From Escherichia phage vB_EcoM-UFV09: a stretch of 64,000 nucleotides of DNA. The number at the start of each line of letters is the position of its first letter. Position 1 is the stretch's first letter. Position numbers and translations under genes: made by a program. The stretch is taken from sequence record MZ291552.2; one strand, given 5' to 3'. Below are positions 3,473 to 31,524 of this stretch, piece by piece. A model generated the notes under the pieces. It saw only the letters and a program-made list of their open reading frames with translations. It had not been told where the DNA came from and did no database searches.

Positions 3473-3897
3473 TGATTCTAATCCCTGAAACTCATGAATT
3501 AGTTCTCGAGAATGTCGAAGCACTTATTCCTGAAGCACAGGGTCGCTTTGACGAGTTGTCTTCTGCTTTAAATAAAGACGATATAAATAAAATTATCGAG
3601 AATATGCTTGATGATGAAACTGATTTAGCGGTTGCATTAGCTTCTATTAATGAAAATATGCCGTTAAATGAATTTATCGTTAAACATGTTTCTGCCCGTG
3701 GTGAAATTACTCGCACTAAAGATCGCAAAACCCGCGAACGTAATGCATTTCAAACTACCGGGTTGTCTAAAGCAAAACGTAGACAAATTGCTCGTAAAGC
3801 TACCAAAACGAAGATTGCCAATCCAGCAGGTCAATCTCGTGCTCAGCGTAAGCGTAAAAAAGCTCTCAAACGCCGTAAAGCATTAGGATTAAGCTAA
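3472..3897 (+). CDS. 68: Prohead core protein
   Basis: 141 aa, same as T4 gp68; basic C-terminus; synteny. Confidence 0.8.
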
Positions 3898-4535
3898 TGA
3901 ATGAACCCCAATTACTAATTGAAACTTGGGGTCAACCTGGCGAAATTATTGATGGCGTACCAATGCTTGAATCCCATGATGGAAAAGACTTAGGTTTAAA
4001 ACCTGGTTTATACATCGAAGGAATATTCATGCAAGCGGAAGTCGTCAATAGAAATAAACGTCTTTATCCAAAACGTATATTAGAAAAAGCGGTAAAAGAC
4101 TATATCAATGAGCAAGTTTTAACTAAACAAGCTCTCGGAGAATTAAATCATCCTCCACGCGCTAATGTTGACCCGATGCAAGCCGCTATCATTATAGAAG
4201 ATATGTGGTGGAAAGGAAATGACGTATACGGACGAGCTCGTGTTATTGAAGGTGACCATGGTCCTGGAGATAAATTAGCAGCTAATATTCGTGCCGGATG
4301 GATTCCAGGAGTTTCTTCTCGTGGATTAGGTTCATTGACTGACACAAATAAAGGTTATCGTATCGTAAACGAAGGATTCAAATTAACTGTAGGTGTTGAT
4401 GCAGTATGGGGTCCAAGTGCTCCAGATGCATGGGTAACTCCTAAGGAAATTACAGAATCACAGACGGCGGAAGCCGATACAAGTGCCGATGACGCCTATA
4501 TGGCTCTCGCAGAGGCCATGAAAAAAGCGTTATAA
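3897..4535 (+). CDS. 21: Prohead core scaffold protease
   Basis: 212 aa, same as T4 gp21; position between 68 and 22. Confidence 0.85.
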   Translation: MNEPQLLIETWGQPGEIIDGVPMLESHDGKDLGLKPGLYIEGIFMQAEVVNRNKRLYPKRILEKAVKDYINEQVLTKQALGELNHPPRANVDPMQAAIIIEDMWWKGNDVYGRARVIEGDHGPGDKLAANIRAGWIPGVSSRGLGSLTDTNKGYRIVNEGFKLTVGVDAVWGPSAPDAWVTPKEITESQTAEADTSADDAYMALAEAMKKAL

Positions 4536-22563: not shown

Positions 22564-22617
22564 TCCTCATGTTATGTCAGTAAGATTATTATAACACAAC
22601 ACGAGGGACTTGTAAAC
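22564..22617 (-). promoter_or_regulatory. Sigma70-type early promoter and leader: -35 TTTACA, 17-bp spacer, -10 TATAAT, then GAGGA RBS (copy 1 of a 54-bp exact repeat)
   Basis: Minus strand reads GTTTACA-17 nt-TATAAT; the identical 54-mer recurs at 37872-37925. Confidence 0.65.
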
Positions 22618-24674
22618 TACATTTTGAACTTTTTAGACATTCCGTTGATGTTAACCAAAGAAGCTAAGATTTGAGAAACTTCGTTTTCCTCTTCTTTTGA
22701 TTCTTCTACAAGGAATTGATTAAATCCAGCCATTGGACGAACTTCACCAGTTTCCATCAGATGGTCGCCATCATATACTGATTCTTCTAATTGTTCAGAA
22801 GGAGGAACGATTGTACCTTCGATTAGATACTTGTTATAAGCAGTTTCTTTCATCATGTACGTACTTACTTTATTAATCTTCAGTAAAATTCCACGCGGCA
22901 AAATAACTTCAGCTTCGGATGGAAATCCTGATAAATGACCTGGAACGATAACTTTAACTCGTTCAGCTCCTTTAATTACCATACCTACATTAGTTTCAGC
23001 GTCTTCATTCGCATATGTAGAATGACTACCCATATGCATTAAATCTTCAGCATCAACTGAACCTTCTCCTTCACCAGAAAATACTGCTCCGGAATCATCT
23101 AAGGCCATATAATTTTTACCATATTCACCGAAGATATTTGGCTTGAGTGAAGTAGATACAAAGTTCTTGAAATAGAACATTTTATTTTCTATATTATGAC
23201 GTAAAGTTTTAAAGGTAACTTCTTGCCCACGATAAAGAGTAGTTCCTGGAGGAAGAACTGAACCTTTAGAAAATGCAGAATCCAGCGTCTCAATATGTTT
23301 AATAGCTCGTTCCATATATTCTTCACGGGTAGAATCAGGTTTACCTAGAAGGAACGAGTTCATTTCAACATATGAATCTGCGCAATAATCTTCAATTACA
23401 TCAGACTCAGCCTGAGTTAATCCTTTTGGAGTTACTTCAGTGCTTGCATATTCATATGCCTGAGCAGCAGATTCATCAATTAATTTATAAATTCCATTCA
23501 TTACAAATTGAATAATAGCTGTCTTTTCATCTGGTGTAGCTTTAGAACCTTTAACTAAATCATTGACAATTTTCTTAATAACATCAAAGCTATTAGAAAT
23601 ATTAATGTCAGCAAGATCGCTTAAAATTTTATCAGTTTTATAATCAAAGAATTCTTTATTCTTTAAATATTCTTGAGAACCTTGATATGTTATATCGCTC
23701 TGCAGCTTGATAGATGGATCGCGTAAACGTGCATGGGCCAATGCAATATGATTTCGGAAGCTTTCGAGTTCATAATCACTAGATTTAAAACGAGAAGCAC
23801 TTCTCATACCACCGATAGCTCCTTTGCTAAAGTTTGAACCAACCTGAATAACGCCAGAGTTCATTGGTCCTTCTGCTTTATATACCGGAACTTTAGATTC
23901 AAACTCTTGATATTTCTTAGCAGCGAAGCTATCACCCTGAAGTGAAGCATCAACAGTAGAATATTGAGCTTGTGCTGCTAATCGACGACTAATTTTAGTT
24001 TTCTGAATAACAGCTTGATCCGTGCGCTTATCATTTTCTAAAGCAATAGAAGCAGCAACAGCAACAGCTTTAGGAACAGCATTACCTGTTTTAACGTCTA
24101 CATAAACATCACCAACCTTTGATTCAACTTTTGTGAATAACTCGGTTGAAATAGGAGGTACACCTGGAATGTCTTCTAAATTGGCATTTTTACGGTAAAC
24201 CATAATATATGCGTACTTTTTATCATAATCCCAGATTTCCTTTAAAAGAACATATCGACCTGCTCCTTTAGTACGTACTAAACGGTCAGCAATAACTTGC
24301 ATTTGCCGAGCAGCGCCATTTGTTTTACTTTTTAGTACGCGGAATAAGCATGCATCAATTTTATACTGTTTCATTGTTTGAAGAGCAGTATCAAAAACAG
24401 CATTAATGACGCCAATTGGATTTCCACCCAAGTTTTTAAGCTTAACTAATGATAGTTTCTCATTAACGCCTATCATTACGATATGCATCATTTTGTCGCC
24501 TGGCTTAACGTTTTTATTCGTATCACCGCCAGAGGTGTATGTACAAAATCTAAATCCAGGAAGCACGCTTTCTTCACCTGCTTGAATAGCAAAAATTTGA
24601 GGTATTTTATGCTTAGGATTTAAGTTAACAACCGGCGCCGAAGCGCCGTCAAATAATTCTGTAATAAGTTCCAT
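22617..24674 (-). CDS. Alt-family ADP-ribosyltransferase paralog (internal head protein-like)
   Basis: 685 aa; N-terminus MELITELFD shared with the adjacent Alt; C-terminal R (LYRGQ), STS (NFVSTSL) and E-x-E (EAEVILPRG) motifs. Confidence 0.75.
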   Translation of the reverse strand: MELITELFDGASAPVVNLNPKHKIPQIFAIQAGEESVLPGFRFCTYTSGGDTNKNVKPGDKMMHIVMIGVNEKLSLVKLKNLGGNPIGVINAVFDTALQTMKQYKIDACLFRVLKSKTNGAARQMQVIADRLVRTKGAGRYVLLKEIWDYDKKYAYIMVYRKNANLEDIPGVPPISTELFTKVESKVGDVYVDVKTGNAVPKAVAVAASIALENDKRTDQAVIQKTKISRRLAAQAQYSTVDASLQGDSFAAKKYQEFESKVPVYKAEGPMNSGVIQVGSNFSKGAIGGMRSASRFKSSDYELESFRNHIALAHARLRDPSIKLQSDITYQGSQEYLKNKEFFDYKTDKILSDLADINISNSFDVIKKIVNDLVKGSKATPDEKTAIIQFVMNGIYKLIDESAAQAYEYASTEVTPKGLTQAESDVIEDYCADSYVEMNSFLLGKPDSTREEYMERAIKHIETLDSAFSKGSVLPPGTTLYRGQEVTFKTLRHNIENKMFYFKNFVSTSLKPNIFGEYGKNYMALDDSGAVFSGEGEGSVDAEDLMHMGSHSTYANEDAETNVGMVIKGAERVKVIVPGHLSGFPSEAEVILPRGILLKINKVSTYMMKETAYNKYLIEGTIVPPSEQLEESVYDGDHLMETGEVRPMAGFNQFLVEESKEEENEVSQILASLVNINGMSKKFKM

Positions 24675-24677
24675 GAT

Positions 24678-26771
24678 TTATCCTTGAACGAACTTGTAAG
24701 GCATGTTTGTAATATCTATGCAAGACGCAATAATTCCAAGAGATGATTCTACTTTCTGTTTAATATTTGATGAAACAAATGATGCAAAGTCAACTCTGTC
24801 TTCTATTTCAATATCACCTGTCATTGCAACCAATTCACCAGTTTCCATTAAATGGTCTCCATCATAGATTACCGATTCGGTGAGCTCTTCCGTGGTCATA
24901 ACTTCAGCTTGAATGAGTTTTGTATTATTAGATGTTGTTCCGTCATTATTAGAAGCATCGATTATTTTATTAACTTTGACCATCAATCCACGCGGTAGAA
25001 TAACTTCAGCTTCTGTTGCTATTCCGAGACTTCCTGGATATACAACATTAACTTTATGAGCTCCATCAATTGCCCATCCTATTTGAACTTTAACATATTC
25101 AGGATTTTCTTTATACGCTCTTATTTCGTTTGGATTAATAGTTATTCCTTCTTCATTTTTATCAACTGTTAATTCATTGCGAGCTTCTGGTTCTAAAAGA
25201 CCAATACCAGCATGTGTGATTCCAAAACGTCCAAAAATGATAGGAGTTAAAGAAGTAGATACAAAATTTCTGAAGTAGAACACTTTATTTTTAACTAACG
25301 CTTCATATATAGGAGCAGTCATACTTTGAGCACGATAAACTGTAATGCCTTCTGGTATACGGTCACCATTTTCAAAAGCTGAATCTAAGTTATTTATAGC
25401 AGATTCAATTTCTTTTTCACTCATTACATCGTATCGTTCTGGATTGTAACGACCTAAAAGAAGATTATTGATGTCAGTATATCCTGAACCGCAATATTCT
25501 CTAATGCCACGCTTTTGTGATGGAGTATATTTAGAACCATCGCGGGCAATAGTAATATCAATCATTGGACCAGCACCAATTCCAGAAAAACTGTAAATCA
25601 TTCGTTTGAGGAATTTAGTTTTTGCTGCGTTCCAGGAATTTTTAGTTATTTCTTCCCAGACTTCATCTGGTTGTCCTTTACGATTTTTATTATGATTAGC
25701 AAGCCATTTATCTTTATAATCTTCAAAGAATTGATTTACAGCTGCTGCGTATTTCTCTAAACATTTTATTGAAGTAGTTGGTTCATTTTTAATTGCATTA
25801 AAAATTACTTCTTTAATTTTTTCTGAAACTTCACCGACTTGACTCATTGGAAAGAATTTATAATCATAGTGAAGTTCATCTGCCGTTCCTTCAGCAATAA
25901 TTTTTGCTGCCTTTGTTTTAGAAGCTAATGAATTAATTCCAATTTTCATTTCTTCTGCTTCGGGAATTAAAGGTGCAGTAGCTGGTTTATTAAAATTAGC
26001 TGCTGTAGATTCATACTTCTGGAATAATTCACTTTCAAATCTAGAAGATTCCAATGACTGACTTTGTGCAATTGCTCTACGGGAAATTTTAACTTTAACG
26101 ATTACAGCTTGGTCAGAACGTTTATCATTTTCTTGCGCAATAGATGCTGCAATTGCTTCATTTTTAGTTACTTGAGCTCCAGTATCTTTATTGATATAAA
26201 CATCACCGACCTTCGATTCAACTTTAGTAAAGAGTTCAGTGCTAATTTCTGGAACTCCTGGAATGTCTTCTAATGATACATTTTTGCGATGTATAAGAAT
26301 ATATGCATACTTTTTATCGTAATCCCAGAGTTCCTTAAGAAGGACGTATCTGCCACCTGAACGACTACGGATAAGTCTATCAGCAATAACTTGAATTTGT
26401 CGAGCTTGGCCAGCAGTTTTAGACTTAAGAATACGAAGCATGCAGGCATCAATTTTATATTGACGCATCGTTTGCATTGCAACAGTAAAAACTGAATTGA
26501 TATAATTAATTGGGCTTGGACCAAGACCTTTTAATTTAGCAATTGAGCCTTTAGCAGTTAATGTAAAAGGAACAATATGCATCATTTTATCGCCCATCTT
26601 TAAATCGCGATTAGTATCACCTCCAGATGTATAGGTACATAAACGAAAGCCTGGTTGTTCAATTGCATCATCAACATGAACTGAAAAAATTTGTGGTATT
26701 TTCTTCTTTGGATTTAAGTTTGTAATCGGAAGAGTAGTATCTTCGTCAAATAATTCTGTAATAAGTTCCAT
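24678..26771 (-). CDS. alt: ADP-ribosyltransferase Alt (packaged, injected RNAP-modifying enzyme)
   Basis: 697 aa; N-terminus MELITELFDEDTTLPITNL recognised as T4 Alt-like; VYRAQ, NFVSTSL and EAEVILPRG motifs; position next to gene 30. Confidence 0.8.
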   Translation of the reverse strand: MELITELFDEDTTLPITNLNPKKKIPQIFSVHVDDAIEQPGFRLCTYTSGGDTNRDLKMGDKMMHIVPFTLTAKGSIAKLKGLGPSPINYINSVFTVAMQTMRQYKIDACMLRILKSKTAGQARQIQVIADRLIRSRSGGRYVLLKELWDYDKKYAYILIHRKNVSLEDIPGVPEISTELFTKVESKVGDVYINKDTGAQVTKNEAIAASIAQENDKRSDQAVIVKVKISRRAIAQSQSLESSRFESELFQKYESTAANFNKPATAPLIPEAEEMKIGINSLASKTKAAKIIAEGTADELHYDYKFFPMSQVGEVSEKIKEVIFNAIKNEPTTSIKCLEKYAAAVNQFFEDYKDKWLANHNKNRKGQPDEVWEEITKNSWNAAKTKFLKRMIYSFSGIGAGPMIDITIARDGSKYTPSQKRGIREYCGSGYTDINNLLLGRYNPERYDVMSEKEIESAINNLDSAFENGDRIPEGITVYRAQSMTAPIYEALVKNKVFYFRNFVSTSLTPIIFGRFGITHAGIGLLEPEARNELTVDKNEEGITINPNEIRAYKENPEYVKVQIGWAIDGAHKVNVVYPGSLGIATEAEVILPRGLMVKVNKIIDASNNDGTTSNNTKLIQAEVMTTEELTESVIYDGDHLMETGELVAMTGDIEIEDRVDFASFVSSNIKQKVESSLGIIASCIDITNMPYKFVQG

Positions 26772-26827: not shown

Positions 26828-27013
26828 TTAATAGAGAGCTAAAAGAGTACGATATACTTCAAACTTTGGACCTTTTTCATATGGATCAAATCTTTCCGTG
26901 AATTCATCATATGCTAGTTTATCTGGGAATTCAAGAATAACCTGCGATACCGCAGTGGAAACATCTCCACCTTCTTTTTGAGCCACGACAATTGTTTCTA
27001 AGTAAGCTTTCAT
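26828..27013 (-). CDS. Hypothetical small protein between gene 30 and alt
   Basis: 61-aa ORF overlapping the gene 30 stop. Confidence 0.55.
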   Translation of the reverse strand: MKAYLETIVVAQKEGGDVSTAVSQVILEFPDKLAYDEFTERFDPYEKGPKFEVYRTLLALY

Positions 27014-28473
27014 AAACCAGTTACCTCATGAAAATCGCCAAATACATCTTCGAACGTATTAGCTTTAGTTTTATCTTCACGTAAACGAATTGCAATTGGA
27101 AGAAATAGCTTAACGTAATCAGTACGTCCATCTAATTTTACCCAGCCGTTGCATTCGCACTCTAGAATTTTTCCAATATAATAATTTTGGTTTTCCATAA
27201 TGCGAGTACGATCAAGTTCATGCGATTTTATACCGGCTTTATCTTTTAAGCCTGAACCAGCATTTACTTTAATTTTTCCACACTCTGATTCAAGAATGAA
27301 ACCACCTGCTTTAGTAGGGTCTTTACGGTGAGGATAAATTCCTACAATTTTTAAATCAACATCAATTACTTCTTTAAATTTATAAAGATTTTTTGAACGA
27401 GCATTTTCCCATAATCCATCGATATTTTTGAGAATAATACCTTCAAGACCTTGGTCAATATACTTTTTATAAATTACCTTAGCTTCATCTAGGTTATTTA
27501 CTATCTGGTTTTCAATTAAAATTACTTTATCATAGCCTGATGTCATTTGTTCTAGTTTAGAAAAACGTACATCATATTTTAAACGAAATGCTGGAAGACC
27601 ATATATTTCTACTAATGGAACATAGTCCCAGACCTGAAACTTCATGCATTGTGCTTCTTTTTCCGAAATGGTTCCCTTTAAAGATTTATTAGCGATTCCA
27701 TTAGAAGTAGTACGTGATTCAGCTACTTCGGCGAATTCTTTAGCTTTACTAATTTCAGGATAAGCATCAAAAAGAAAATCTAGGCCTTCTGGCTCCTTTT
27801 TAACCTGCTCATGGTATACCAATTCGCCATCAATTAACACACCTTCTGGATGAATCTGGCGAGCTTCTGCAGTCATTTTGATTAACTCTTCTTTAAGAAG
27901 ATCTAATCCTAGATATTCATTGCCAGCTCGTGATAAAAGACGAACATCATCTAATTCATCACCTCTGACTTCAGCAAAACAGCGAGCTCCATCAGCTTTT
28001 AGCTGTGCAAAGGCTGGAAATTTGATATTCTTATTAATGCCTTTTTCGTCATAAGAACTTGCTAGCATTTGAGGTTGTTCAGGAATTAAACCTGGCCAAA
28101 CTTTGTTTGCAATAGATACTGATGCACCGCATTCAAGGTCTCGCATCATCACCCGACGCAAAACTTCAACATCATCTTTTTTACCATCGGTGATATATCC
28201 GATTAATTCCTCAATTGCCGCATTTCCAGTCAATTTCCGAGTAGCTAACGTGAATTCAATGAAGTCAAGCATATCGGTAAGAGTCAACATTCCAAAACTC
28301 TGGGTAGTAATACCCGGTTTAGGCCATTTCTTGATATAATACTGTAACCCACGAGAATAAGTCAGACGATATACTCGTTTAAGCAATTCATTATCTTTAT
28401 TCTTTTCAAGAATTGCTTGCTTCTGCTTAGTTGAACCAATAGATGCTATTTCGTTCAGAATTTTAAGAATCAT
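27010..28473 (-). CDS. 30: ATP-dependent DNA ligase
   Basis: 487 aa, same as T4 ligase; adenylation motif KADG (AQLKADGARCF); N-terminus MILKILNEIASIGSTKQKQAILEKNK. Confidence 0.95.
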   Translation of the reverse strand: MILKILNEIASIGSTKQKQAILEKNKDNELLKRVYRLTYSRGLQYYIKKWPKPGITTQSFGMLTLTDMLDFIEFTLATRKLTGNAAIEELIGYITDGKKDDVEVLRRVMMRDLECGASVSIANKVWPGLIPEQPQMLASSYDEKGINKNIKFPAFAQLKADGARCFAEVRGDELDDVRLLSRAGNEYLGLDLLKEELIKMTAEARQIHPEGVLIDGELVYHEQVKKEPEGLDFLFDAYPEISKAKEFAEVAESRTTSNGIANKSLKGTISEKEAQCMKFQVWDYVPLVEIYGLPAFRLKYDVRFSKLEQMTSGYDKVILIENQIVNNLDEAKVIYKKYIDQGLEGIILKNIDGLWENARSKNLYKFKEVIDVDLKIVGIYPHRKDPTKAGGFILESECGKIKVNAGSGLKDKAGIKSHELDRTRIMENQNYYIGKILECECNGWVKLDGRTDYVKLFLPIAIRLREDKTKANTFEDVFGDFHEVTGL

Positions 28474-28739
28474 TGTTCATCCTTTAGAGTTTGGTTTACA
28501 GCTCTATTATAAATCAATTCATCATTAAGCTCAGTCAAAGACCTGTGGTACGTGGTTCTAACTTTATTTCCTTGCATCCAGTGCTTGACGTAAATGAAAC
28601 CTTGCTCTACACATTTTTTAAAAATTCGTTCGTCTTTTTGAGCTCGGAATTCTGGATTGCATCTAAAAAATTGATTTACGTGACCGTAATCACGTGTAGT
28701 ATTACCTTCATTTTCATAAATAGTATGAACAACAAACAT
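28470..28739 (-). CDS. Hypothetical protein (T4 30.1 position)
   Basis: 89-aa ORF overlapping neighbours by a few nt. Confidence 0.6.
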   Translation of the reverse strand: MFVVHTIYENEGNTTRDYGHVNQFFRCNPEFRAQKDERIFKKCVEQGFIYVKHWMQGNKVRTTYHRSLTELNDELIYNRAVNQTLKDEQ

Positions 28740-29581
28740 TAGAATGCTCCTTGTAAAATATTATCACCACTAGTAGGTCTATTATACAAATACTCTATGC
28801 CACCGGGTTTAATATAATTCCATGTCTGAAACGGATACACATGATATGGATGTGTATAATATGGATGGTATGGATTTAATCCAGGAGTTCTCCAGGTAGT
28901 GTTCCAAGGAAAAGAATCGTTTTTAATCATCTTTTCAATTACATCTTTTATAGCTTTTTCACTATCAAAACTTTCTTTATTTTCCTTCGATGGAAAAAGC
29001 TTATTCTCTACATCATTCCATGTATAAACTCGCTGTGCAGTTTTTGGAATACTGTCACGCTCCCCTCGAGCCATCCAATAAACAGGAACATTTAATATTT
29101 CACTCGCATGATCGCAGTGGTGAGCGAGATCGTCAATATAACAAATTACGTTATATTTCTCTTTTGCCTTTTTGAATAACTCTTCTTTTGAAGAATCATG
29201 ACCACACATCAATACTTCTGAGAAGGCACCAGGAAAAAGAGCATTCAAATTAAATTGACGATTCAGCAGAGCGTCAATAGAATCACCCAGTGCTGTAACA
29301 GCTACAAAATTATAATCTTCTTTTAATTTGTTAATTACACACAGGGCATCTTTATATGGAGACAAATAGCGAATAAAATCTGAACGATTATACTTTTCGA
29401 TTAATTTAACACCAAGTTCTTCATCGCAATTAAAGAGCTTACCAGGAGAAATAAATTTTTCATCCTGAATCATTTTTAAAATATGTTCTAACGGAAGATT
29501 ATATTTTTGGGCAAAATAAGGAAGGCCTGATTGCCAGCTTAAACACACCCCGTCAATATCAGTCAAAATAGTAGGCTTCAT
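28739..29581 (-). CDS. HAD-superfamily hydrolase-like protein (T4 30.2 position)
   Basis: 280 aa; N-terminal LTDIDGV (DxD nucleophile motif) and a later YIDD acidic motif; inference from motifs. Confidence 0.55.
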   Translation of the reverse strand: MKPTILTDIDGVCLSWQSGLPYFAQKYNLPLEHILKMIQDEKFISPGKLFNCDEELGVKLIEKYNRSDFIRYLSPYKDALCVINKLKEDYNFVAVTALGDSIDALLNRQFNLNALFPGAFSEVLMCGHDSSKEELFKKAKEKYNVICYIDDLAHHCDHASEILNVPVYWMARGERDSIPKTAQRVYTWNDVENKLFPSKENKESFDSEKAIKDVIEKMIKNDSFPWNTTWRTPGLNPYHPYYTHPYHVYPFQTWNYIKPGGIEYLYNRPTSGDNILQGAF

Positions 29582-30042
29582 AGAGAGTCTCTTAATAGGT
29601 TTAACACATCAATAAATTCAGCTTCGGTTAGTATTGTATCATCTTTTGTTAGACCACTAGCCATGCTGTGCTTCAAAACTTTTCCTTTTGAGGCTTGTAA
29701 GGCATCACGAAACCCCTTGTTTTGAATCGCTGCTTCAAAATATGCATTTGTATACAACTCTTTCCATGCTGCAGAGTATCTTGAAAAGGGAATTCCAAGC
29801 CAGAAAAGCGTCCCACGGTCCGCAGCTCTTGCATAAGCTCTTCCACTTTGCTGGGCGGCCAAGCCGGAGAGCCTAAATATACGACGTTGTTGTTCAACAT
29901 TTTTCACCTTGCATCCTTGGAGGAATCCTTCAAGACCTCCGAATTGAATACCATCCATGACGAAAGGCCATTGGGCGAAATTACTTAATGCACACGATGG
30001 CCATCTAAAATTGCTTCTAATCTCTAACTCAGACATTTTCAA
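29578..30042 (-). CDS. YbiA/NADAR (DUF1768)-like protein (T4 30.3 position)
   Basis: 154 aa; segment SNFAQWPFVMDGIQF resembles the YbiA signature FSNFAAWPIKVDGKTW recalled from memory. Confidence 0.5.
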   Translation of the reverse strand: MKMSELEIRSNFRWPSCALSNFAQWPFVMDGIQFGGLEGFLQGCKVKNVEQQRRIFRLSGLAAQQSGRAYARAADRGTLFWLGIPFSRYSAAWKELYTNAYFEAAIQNKGFRDALQASKGKVLKHSMASGLTKDDTILTEAEFIDVLNLLRDSL

Positions 30043-30235
30043 TACTTATAATTTCAACATCAGCCCAATGACCATAGCAAGGAAGACGAAATTCAACTGG
30101 CCAGTTAGGGTCCTTTTCTAATATAATAGACTTAACTTGTGGTTCTTCATGTTCATCAGTATATGGATTTTTATCTGTTACTTTATATGTGACCTTAATG
30201 TATTGAATTCCAAAAATCTTATTAATTATATTCAT
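30029..30235 (-). CDS. Hypothetical small protein
   Basis: 68-aa ORF in the operon. Confidence 0.5.
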   Translation of the reverse strand: MNIINKIFGIQYIKVTYKVTDKNPYTDEHEEPQVKSIILEKDPNWPVEFRLPCYGHWADVEIISIENV

Positions 30236-30429
30236 ACTAATTCCTTTAATCCGTAAATAGGAGACAATTCATCACCCATACGAAGGTCTTCATTTCCATC
30301 TACCCAGGAAACAATATAAGCCTCTTTTATTTGAACACCACTCCATTTAAACGGAGGTAGAACCTTAGAAATTAATCCAGGTATACCAACTCCCTTTAAT
30401 TCAACAGTTTGACCTAAAAAGAATTTCAT
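30232..30429 (-). CDS. Hypothetical small protein
   Basis: 65-aa ORF, overlap-coupled to neighbours. Confidence 0.5.
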   Translation of the reverse strand: MKFFLGQTVELKGVGIPGLISKVLPPFKWSGVQIKEAYIVSWVDGNEDLRMGDELSPIYGLKELV

Positions 30430-30716
30430 TAGAACCTCATCTGAAAACCATGCGATTTAACATTACCGCCGCCAATATCAGAAATATTAATTTCACGCGC
30501 AATCGAAGGATCGATGTCAATTTCACGATTAAGTTTAGCGATAGCTAAAGTATCACGCCCATTTACAGTACGGAACTCTAAAGGACAAACCACATCAACG
30601 TAATTTTTAATCGATTCACTGGTAGGTTGCAAATGAGCAGGAAGGTCTTTGGGCGCCTTTGAGAAAACCACTTCACAGAAATTTTTGCGGGTGTCAAAAT
30701 AAGTAGTCATAAACAT
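30429..30716 (-). CDS. Hypothetical protein
   Basis: 95-aa ORF. Confidence 0.55.
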   Translation of the reverse strand: MFMTTYFDTRKNFCEVVFSKAPKDLPAHLQPTSESIKNYVDVVCPLEFRTVNGRDTLAIAKLNREIDIDPSIAREINISDIGGGNVKSHGFQMRF

Positions 30717-30757
30717 AATATTTTCCTCAGTAAGGGGCCGAAGCCCCTCATTTATTT

Positions 30758-31123
30758 TTAAATATCAAATTCGTTAAGAACTACATCAAAGATTGCTTCA
30801 AGATGCTCAGGTTTAGCTCTGTTACTCAGAATATGACGAATCCAAGTTTTAACCAAAAGCTTACGATTATCACCATTCCAGCAAGGATGAGTCCCTAAAT
30901 CGCGTTGACGAAAATCATCATCCAAAGCGATTTTGAAGTTGGAACCTTCCATTGTGATTGAAACCGTGATGCCATTTTCAAATCGCATATAAACATAATT
31001 AGGAGTCATATACTGTTCAATTTCGCATACTGATCCATTTTGATGTTTCCAAAGGCAAATAGTATCAATAGAACCTGCAATACCATTAGAAACATATTTA
31101 CGTTCAAAGTTGATGTAGTTCAT
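30758..31123 (-). CDS. Hypothetical protein
   Basis: 121-aa ORF. Confidence 0.55.
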   Translation of the reverse strand: MNYINFERKYVSNGIAGSIDTICLWKHQNGSVCEIEQYMTPNYVYMRFENGITVSITMEGSNFKIALDDDFRQRDLGTHPCWNGDNRKLLVKTWIRHILSNRAKPEHLEAIFDVVLNEFDI

Positions 31124-31191
31124 TTTTGTTCTCCGAGATGTTTAATTGCGGTACAGGTATATAATATCATATCCTGTACCAAAGTAAACAA

Positions 31192-31524
31192 TTATTTTAC
31201 TACTTTCCAGTGCTGCATGTCAAGTTTACCGACTTTTTTCATCTTCTCAATTAAGCGTTCGGCACGTTGGCGAGCTGTAACATAATACCATTCACCTAAT
31301 TCATTTTGTTCAATTTTTCCAACGATTACTGTATTCAATTCATAAATCCAACCAGTAAAGAAATTATGAACTTGAATTGTAAAGGTGAAATCTGTTCCCA
31401 TACCTTCTGTTGTTTCTACTTCAATAATATCACCTTCAACTGCCATTAAGAACCACATAGTTTCGTTATATTCACCATTGAAGCATTTAGCTTTAACTGA
31501 AGCGTTCAGATTAATCGTTTTCAT
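31192..31524 (-). CDS. Hypothetical protein
   Basis: 110-aa ORF with AAGGAG RBS. Confidence 0.55.
   Translation of the reverse strand: MKTINLNASVKAKCFNGEYNETMWFLMAVEGDIIEVETTEGMGTDFTFTIQVHNFFTGWIYELNTVIVGKIEQNELGEWYYVTARQRAERLIEKMKKVGKLDMQHWKVVK

Follow-up and report, generated by a model that had tools for sequence, protein, structure and literature searches.

An intact ortholog of the T4 anti-DarTG1 gene adfN (30.3) in Escherichia phage vB_EcoM-UFV09, predicted to encode a NADAR ADP-ribosylglycohydrolase

Introduction

Gene 30.3 is the DarTG1-resistance locus of T-even phages and has been renamed adfN (Johannesman et al., Nat Commun 2025, PMC11825919). Its product, gp30.3 or AdfN-T4, was put in the NADAR superfamily on bioinformatic grounds by de Souza and Aravind, as related in PMC11125620 and PMC11543638. 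The enzymology of gp30.3 was shown in 2024, and its counter-defence role against DarTG1 in 2025. In vitro, T4 gp30.3 hydrolyses the guanosine-ADPr of DNA and leaves thymidine-ADPr intact (PMC11125620); guanosine-ADPr on RNA is a further substrate (PMC11833690). The T4 NADAR is absent from the list of NADARs that reverse cytidine-ADPr (PMC12945103), and the NADAR of E. coli C7 has no activity on phosphate-end RNA ADPr (PMC11833690).

[quoted passage not shown] The purified protein strips ADP-ribose from DarT1-modified DNA, but the E36A variant, which is inactive in vitro and gives weaker counter-defence, does not; the K43A exchange lowers activity (PMC11825919). A C-terminal helix is needed for full AdfN activity and is lost by frameshift in the DarTG1-sensitive RB69 allele (PMC11825919). 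DarTG1 resistance through adfN has been shown for the T4 and T2 alleles (PMC11825919; bioRxiv 10.1101/2025.11.20.689424). A T4 transposon screen gave independent confirmation, as adfN insertions were lost specifically on DarTG1 hosts and T4 did not need the gene on E. coli K-12 without DarTG1 (bioRxiv 10.1101/2025.11.20.689424). The full effect of AdfN-T4 is seen only in T-even infection. Non-T-even phages are partly rescued, and DarT1 toxicity in uninfected E. coli is not rescued (PMC11825919).

Three other kinds of NADAR are relevant here. DarG1 (E. coli C7; Geobacter lovleyi NADAR, PDB 8bat; Schuller et al., Mol Cell 2023, PMC11543638) is the DarT1-associated antitoxin of the BC4488 type. 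The DarG1 gene adjoins that of its toxin, and DarG1 overcomes DarT1 toxicity even in cells that are not infected; AdfN-T4, in contrast, is an orphan that depends on T-even infection to be fully effective. YbiA (PDB 2b3w), the founding member of PF08719, is a housekeeping N-glycosidase of riboflavin metabolism from a LexA-controlled operon and gives no DarT1 protection in vivo (PMC11125620). AdfN-Bas32 (T5-like) and AdfN-Bas60 (Vequintavirinae) are likewise phage orphan NADARs with anti-DarTG1 activity, but they have been assigned to different clades of NADARs (archaeal-like, bacterial stand-alone) and described as independently acquired (PMC11825919). In solved NADAR structures the conserved lysine touches the ADP-ribose phosphate (PMC11543638), and the Glu/Lys pair corresponds to E88/K95 in the E. 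coli C7 NADAR and to E36/K43 in AdfN-T4. The gp30.3 subfamily carries a His in the last strand, instead of the Glu of YbiA-type or the Asp of DarG1-type proteins (PMC11125620, PMC11543638).

The adfN gene and its neighbourhood

In this study, we analysed a stretch of 64,000 nucleotides (the window) from Escherichia phage vB_EcoM-UFV09 (MZ291552.2). The ORF list contains the 154-codon ORF of the initial annotation at 29578-30042 and places it on the minus strand, which had been left unstated. Its first codon is a TTG at 30042. An ATG at 30036, two codons inside the TTG, gives a product of 152 aa and is the start used in the T4 and UFV05 annotations; residue numbers below follow this start. The features are collected in Table 1.

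Table 1. Features of the adfN locus and of the nearby Alt-type genes, in window coordinates; residues are numbered from the ATG.
Feature	Position	Strand	Basis or remark
adfN CDS (T4 gene 30.3 ortholog), 152 aa + stop	29578..30036	-	ORF list, PF08010, T4 identity
N-terminal NADAR motif SNFAQWPFVMDGIQF, aa 18-32	29941..29985	-	aligns to YbiA FSNFAAWPIKVDGKTW
Glu36 codon, predicted catalytic	29929..29931	-	aligns to YbiA E48
Lys43 codon, predicted catalytic	29908..29910	-	aligns to YbiA K55
His123 codon, last beta-strand, mark of the gp30.3-type NADARs of phages	29668..29670	-	family alignment
C-terminal alpha-helix, aa 138-152	29581..29625	-	AF2 helix 138-151; identical to T4
ATGA overlap of adfN stop (TGA) and gene 30.2 ATG	29578..29581	-	sequence, ORF coordinates
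Gene 30.2	28739-29581	-	downstream of adfN
Gene 30.4	30029-30235	-	3' end shares 8 nt with the ATG end of adfN
Distal Alt-like paralog	22617-24674	-	PF03496
Ligase-proximal Alt (T4 Alt ortholog)	24678-26771	-	PF03496

We found that positions 28000-31500 (3.5 kb) are 100% identical to Escherichia phage vB_EcoM-UFV05 (Tequatrovirus, Straboviridae), in which the adfN ortholog is annotated as 'hypothetical protein'. The order of ORFs is that of the T4 map, with alt, alt.1, DNA ligase (gene 30), 30.1, 30.2, 30.3, 30.4 through 30.9, rIII, 31 and cd. By comparison with the T4 and UFV05 annotations, adfN occupies the orthologous slot between 30.4 and 30.2, upstream of the ligase gene 30. It sits within a co-directional, tightly packed string of genes. 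The overlaps at both of its ends match those of T4, where 30.4 ends at 3514, 30.3 spans 3507-3965 and 30.2 starts at 3962 in the annotated coordinates.

The ORF map and the Pfam and PHROG assignments gave no DarT gene beside adfN, the neighbours being 30.4, 30.2 and 30.1. Genes 30.4 and 30.2 have no Pfam family at E<=0.001 and belong to PHROGs of unknown function, and 30.1 is a DUF3045 protein of unknown function. Gene 30.2 (PHROG 420) encodes 280 aa with no known function. Searches of gp30.2 in Pfam (E<=10), PHROGs, PDB and PADLOC yielded no match that could be interpreted, the sole one (TPK_catalytic, E=0.11) being noise. By eye, its N-terminus ILTDIDGV resembles motif I of HAD phosphatases, and a later YIDD resembles motif IV; both are putative. 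A 30.2 homolog also lies directly downstream of the gp30.3 homolog in Acinetobacter Lazarusvirus.

We also observed that adfN encloses, in the +1 frame, an ORF of 75 aa (29673-29900, minus strand). Its T4 counterpart is gene 30.3', annotated as 'internal translation in a different reading frame', and its Pfam match is DUF2883 (PF11097), at E=1e-35. A good putative Shine-Dalgarno sequence, AAGGTG, lies 5 nt 5' of its ATG and contains the K43 codon of adfN. Among four homologs compared, the 30.3' frame is open in T4 and in the window and absent in Klebsiella phage Matisse; the Acinetobacter phage homolog has a +1-frame ORF of similar length at a different offset.

Family membership and predicted fold

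The adfN product matches the Pfam family PF08010, 'Bacteriophage protein GP30.3', over the whole profile (positions 1-138 of 138; E=1.3e-67, 226.4 bits with a cut-off of 36), and PHROG 652 (E=6.6e-50). Homologs of gp30.3 were found by tblastn in 1,509 phage records. Chance cannot account for matches of this strength and number. An exhaustive HMM search with the gp30.3 family returned 1,440 cluster representatives (50% identity) at E<=0.001.

The initial annotation had called the protein YbiA/NADAR-like and proposed a profile search for the NADAR domain. This search divided: the Pfam NADAR model PF08719 gave no match even at E<=1, but profile-profile comparison and structure both pointed to a NADAR relationship. 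NCBIfam and PADLOC models likewise gave no match to the adfN product. The missing PF08719 match arises because gp30.3 proteins have a Pfam family of their own, PF08010, and it does not indicate absence of homology. We considered these empty model searches as an argument against NADAR membership and rejected it, since the fold search and the profile-profile comparison are clear. A first-pass test with the Pfam NADAR model alone would wrongly dismiss the NADAR call, and the refuting condition given with the initial annotation, lack of a significant NADAR profile match, would have misled in the same way.

Profile-profile comparison with YbiA (hhalign) gave 94.4% and E=8.9e-8. Sequence-only searches of the PDB found YbiA at E=0.48 with the single sequence and at E=0.014 with the profile, values that are marginal and not decisive alone. 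A bridging member of the gp30.3 family (P0098) matches PF08719 at E=3.8e-4, below the threshold of that model. In the structure search, the top match of the adfN product was E. coli YbiA. The predicted structure has the YbiA fold, an alpha-helical core with two small flanking beta-sheets, and the predicted catalytic pair is aligned, so that the fold and active-site comparison proposed with the initial annotation agrees with it. Thus, the adfN product is a predicted NADAR-fold protein.

The wider family shows some variety in architecture. NADAR domains of the gp30.3 type also occur in fusions with BspA-type leucine-rich repeats, Lgt (prolipoprotein diacylglyceryl transferase), an FtsW/RodA-like membrane domain or an alpha/beta hydrolase, and other proteins carry two or three tandem NADAR copies (examples among the HMM-search representatives: P0098, P0122, P0103, P0130, P0089, P0024, P0025). 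Some database records name gp30.3 homologs 'YbiA-like' or 'swarming motility YbiA-like protein'. Among close gp30.3 relatives, many public gene calls are either cut short at 89-126 aa or joined to the 30.3' frame or to families of neighbouring genes (P0004-P0006, P0009, P0013-P0017, P0023). On this evidence, adfN alleles that are frameshifted or decayed, as in RB69, are perhaps fairly common in T4-like phages, unless these calls are assembly or annotation artefacts.

Conserved residues and comparison with T4

To the N-terminal side, the YbiA/NADAR-like motif noticed in the initial annotation is present and aligns to the corresponding motif of YbiA (Table 1). We examined conservation in an alignment of 176 diverse family domains. 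N19, within this motif, is found in 158/159 non-gap rows. The position of Glu36 is Glu in 163/169 non-gap rows, and that of Lys43 is Lys in 158/169, with Arg in 6 more. E36 and K43 form the NADAR Glu/Lys pair, seven residues apart on the helix after the first beta hairpin, and their alignment with YbiA shows that the predicted catalytic residues are kept.

His123 marks the gp30.3 subfamily, and its position is His in 162 of the 167 non-gap rows; in alignment A2 of the family it is invariant. H123 faces YbiA E125 if the hhalign alignment is extended by one residue, the register being off by one residue between two runs. This residue also distinguishes the adfN product from YbiA and DarG1: YbiA has Glu in the last strand, and DarG1 has Asp there together with an N-terminal extension, whereas the adfN product consists of the 152-aa core alone.

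The closest described protein is AdfN-T4, which has the same length and is identical at 145/152 aa (95%) and 423/459 nt. Both genes share the slot 30.4/30.3/30.2/30.1/ligase/alt, and both proteins share E36, K43, H123 and the C-terminal helix. The seven substitutions (window residue first) are R55G, S64A, A67S, A72Q, I82V, A89P and M125I. They are conservative to moderate, and all lie outside the invariant family columns; residues 126-152 are identical to T4 gp30.3. Judged by its sequence, the adfN gene of this phage is an intact ortholog of T4 gene 30.3.

The Alt-type ADP-ribosyltransferases

The initial annotation had placed a pair of ADP-ribosyltransferases about 2.8 kb from the ORF. We identified these as two tandem Alt-type genes, both PF03496 and not DarT, the nearer ending 2,807 bp from the adfN ORF. 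The N-terminal 223 aa of the proximal Alt are 100% identical to T4. The distal paralog (42% identity) is named 'Alt-like' in phage RB3, is common in RB3-type Tequatroviruses and has counterparts with >=95% identity in some 400 phage records. The T4 stretch compared has alt alone annotated beside alt.1 and the ligase gene. In the gap between alt and the ligase gene, a 61-aa ORF at the T4 alt.1 position (26828-27013, minus strand) matches PF24647, 'Phage blade protein', at E=6.8e-28.

The distance between adfN and Alt had been taken to carry meaning, and comparison with three distant phages does not support this. Acinetobacter Lazarusvirus keeps the order of gp30.3, 30.2 and ligase, with alt on the opposite strand. 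Neither Klebsiella phage Matisse nor Rhizobium phage RHph_I1_9 has an ADP-ribosyltransferase annotated within 7 kb of its gp30.3 homolog. Since the linkage is lost in the latter two, the proximity of adfN and Alt is synteny of the T4 backbone rather than a conserved module.

Discussion

We conclude, with a probability of roughly 93%, that the adfN product is a minimal single-domain NADAR ADP-ribosylglycohydrolase that reverses DarT1 marks on phage DNA. In a DarTG1 host, DarT1 would ADP-ribosylate guanines of the replicating phage DNA and block replication. AdfN would then cut the N-glycosidic bond between guanine and ADP-ribose, using Glu36, Lys43 and the subfamily-specific His123. Unmodified DNA would be restored and phage replication could proceed, so that AdfN would act in effect as an orphan, phage-borne DarG1-like antitoxin. 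A YbiA/NADAR-like enzyme able to reverse host ADP-ribosylation of phage DNA had been suggested from the start, and this fits the literature on the T4 ortholog (PMC11825919, PMC11125620) as well as our fold and residue tests. For the present allele with its seven substitutions, we infer behaviour like that of AdfN-T4, given that the two proteins are 95% identical, the frame is intact, the conserved residues are in place and a NADAR fold is predicted.

The other function put forward with the initial annotation was that the NADAR erases or processes ADP-ribose attached by the phage's own transferases (Alt, Alt-like, or ModA/ModB). Two Alt-type genes on the same strand 2.8 kb away, an alt gene within about 2.5 kb of the gp30.3 homolog in Acinetobacter Lazarusvirus, and the co-expression of NADARs with ADP-ribosyltransferases noted by Iyer et al. 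2022 speak for it. However, alt is on the opposite strand in the Acinetobacter phage, and the linkage is gone in the Klebsiella and Rhizobium phages. The substrates also diverge. Record annotations and PMC9503650 describe Alt as an NAD+--arginine ADP-ribosyltransferase whose targets are host proteins, among them the RNA polymerase alpha subunit. The substrates reported for the T4 NADAR are guanine-ADPr on nucleic acids (PMC11125620, PMC11833690, PMC12945103), and these papers gave no NADAR assay on protein-linked ADPr. DarTG1, moreover, fully accounts for the adfN phenotype. On synteny and substrate specificity we rejected a functional link between adfN and Alt, and processing of the phage's own products appears very unlikely. 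In a housekeeping role like that of YbiA, the protein would act as an N-glycosidase, or would scavenge soluble molecules derived from ADP-ribose, and would not work on modified DNA; intermediates of the riboflavin pathway, immune signals derived from NAD, or by-products of RNA repair would be candidate substrates. Such a role would suit the structural match to YbiA, the 'YbiA-like' labels and the account of Iyer et al. We consider it highly improbable, as the last-strand Glu signature of YbiA is replaced by His across nearly the whole family, ADP-ribosylated DNA is a substrate of AdfN-T4 in vitro, T4 that has lost AdfN becomes sensitive specifically to DarTG1, and T4 can do without the gene on E. 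coli K-12 that has no DarTG1.

Truncated and chimeric gp30.3 products in public data, together with the frameshift of RB69, raise the further explanation that the present copy is decayed and non-functional. Its full-length ORF, of T4 length, has the C-terminal helix identical to T4 and all conserved residues, which refutes decay at the sequence level and leaves it a practically negligible chance.

With DarT1-mark reversal as the preferred reading, the simple picture of a free enzyme that cleans DNA may still be incomplete, and a T-even factor may be needed, because AdfN-T4 gives no rescue in uninfected E. coli and only partial rescue of non-T-even phages. A candidate for this factor is gp30.2, whose gene is translationally coupled to adfN and keeps its place beside it in T4, UFV05 and Acinetobacter Lazarusvirus. 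However, no profile, PDB or PADLOC match points to any function for it, neither Klebsiella phage Matisse nor the Rhizobium phage has the 30.3-30.2 pairing, and the T4 DarTG1 transposon screen names adfN without mention of 30.2 (bioRxiv 10.1101/2025.11.20.689424). We therefore regard gp30.2 as a very unlikely cofactor. The dependence of AdfN on T-even infection is a question for the whole field and is not peculiar to this phage.

The adfN gene and its function were already known, so that the initial annotation was right and the finding is not new. The phage carries an intact, probably functional adfN and is therefore predicted to resist DarTG1-bearing E. coli, which is relevant to the choice of therapeutic phages.
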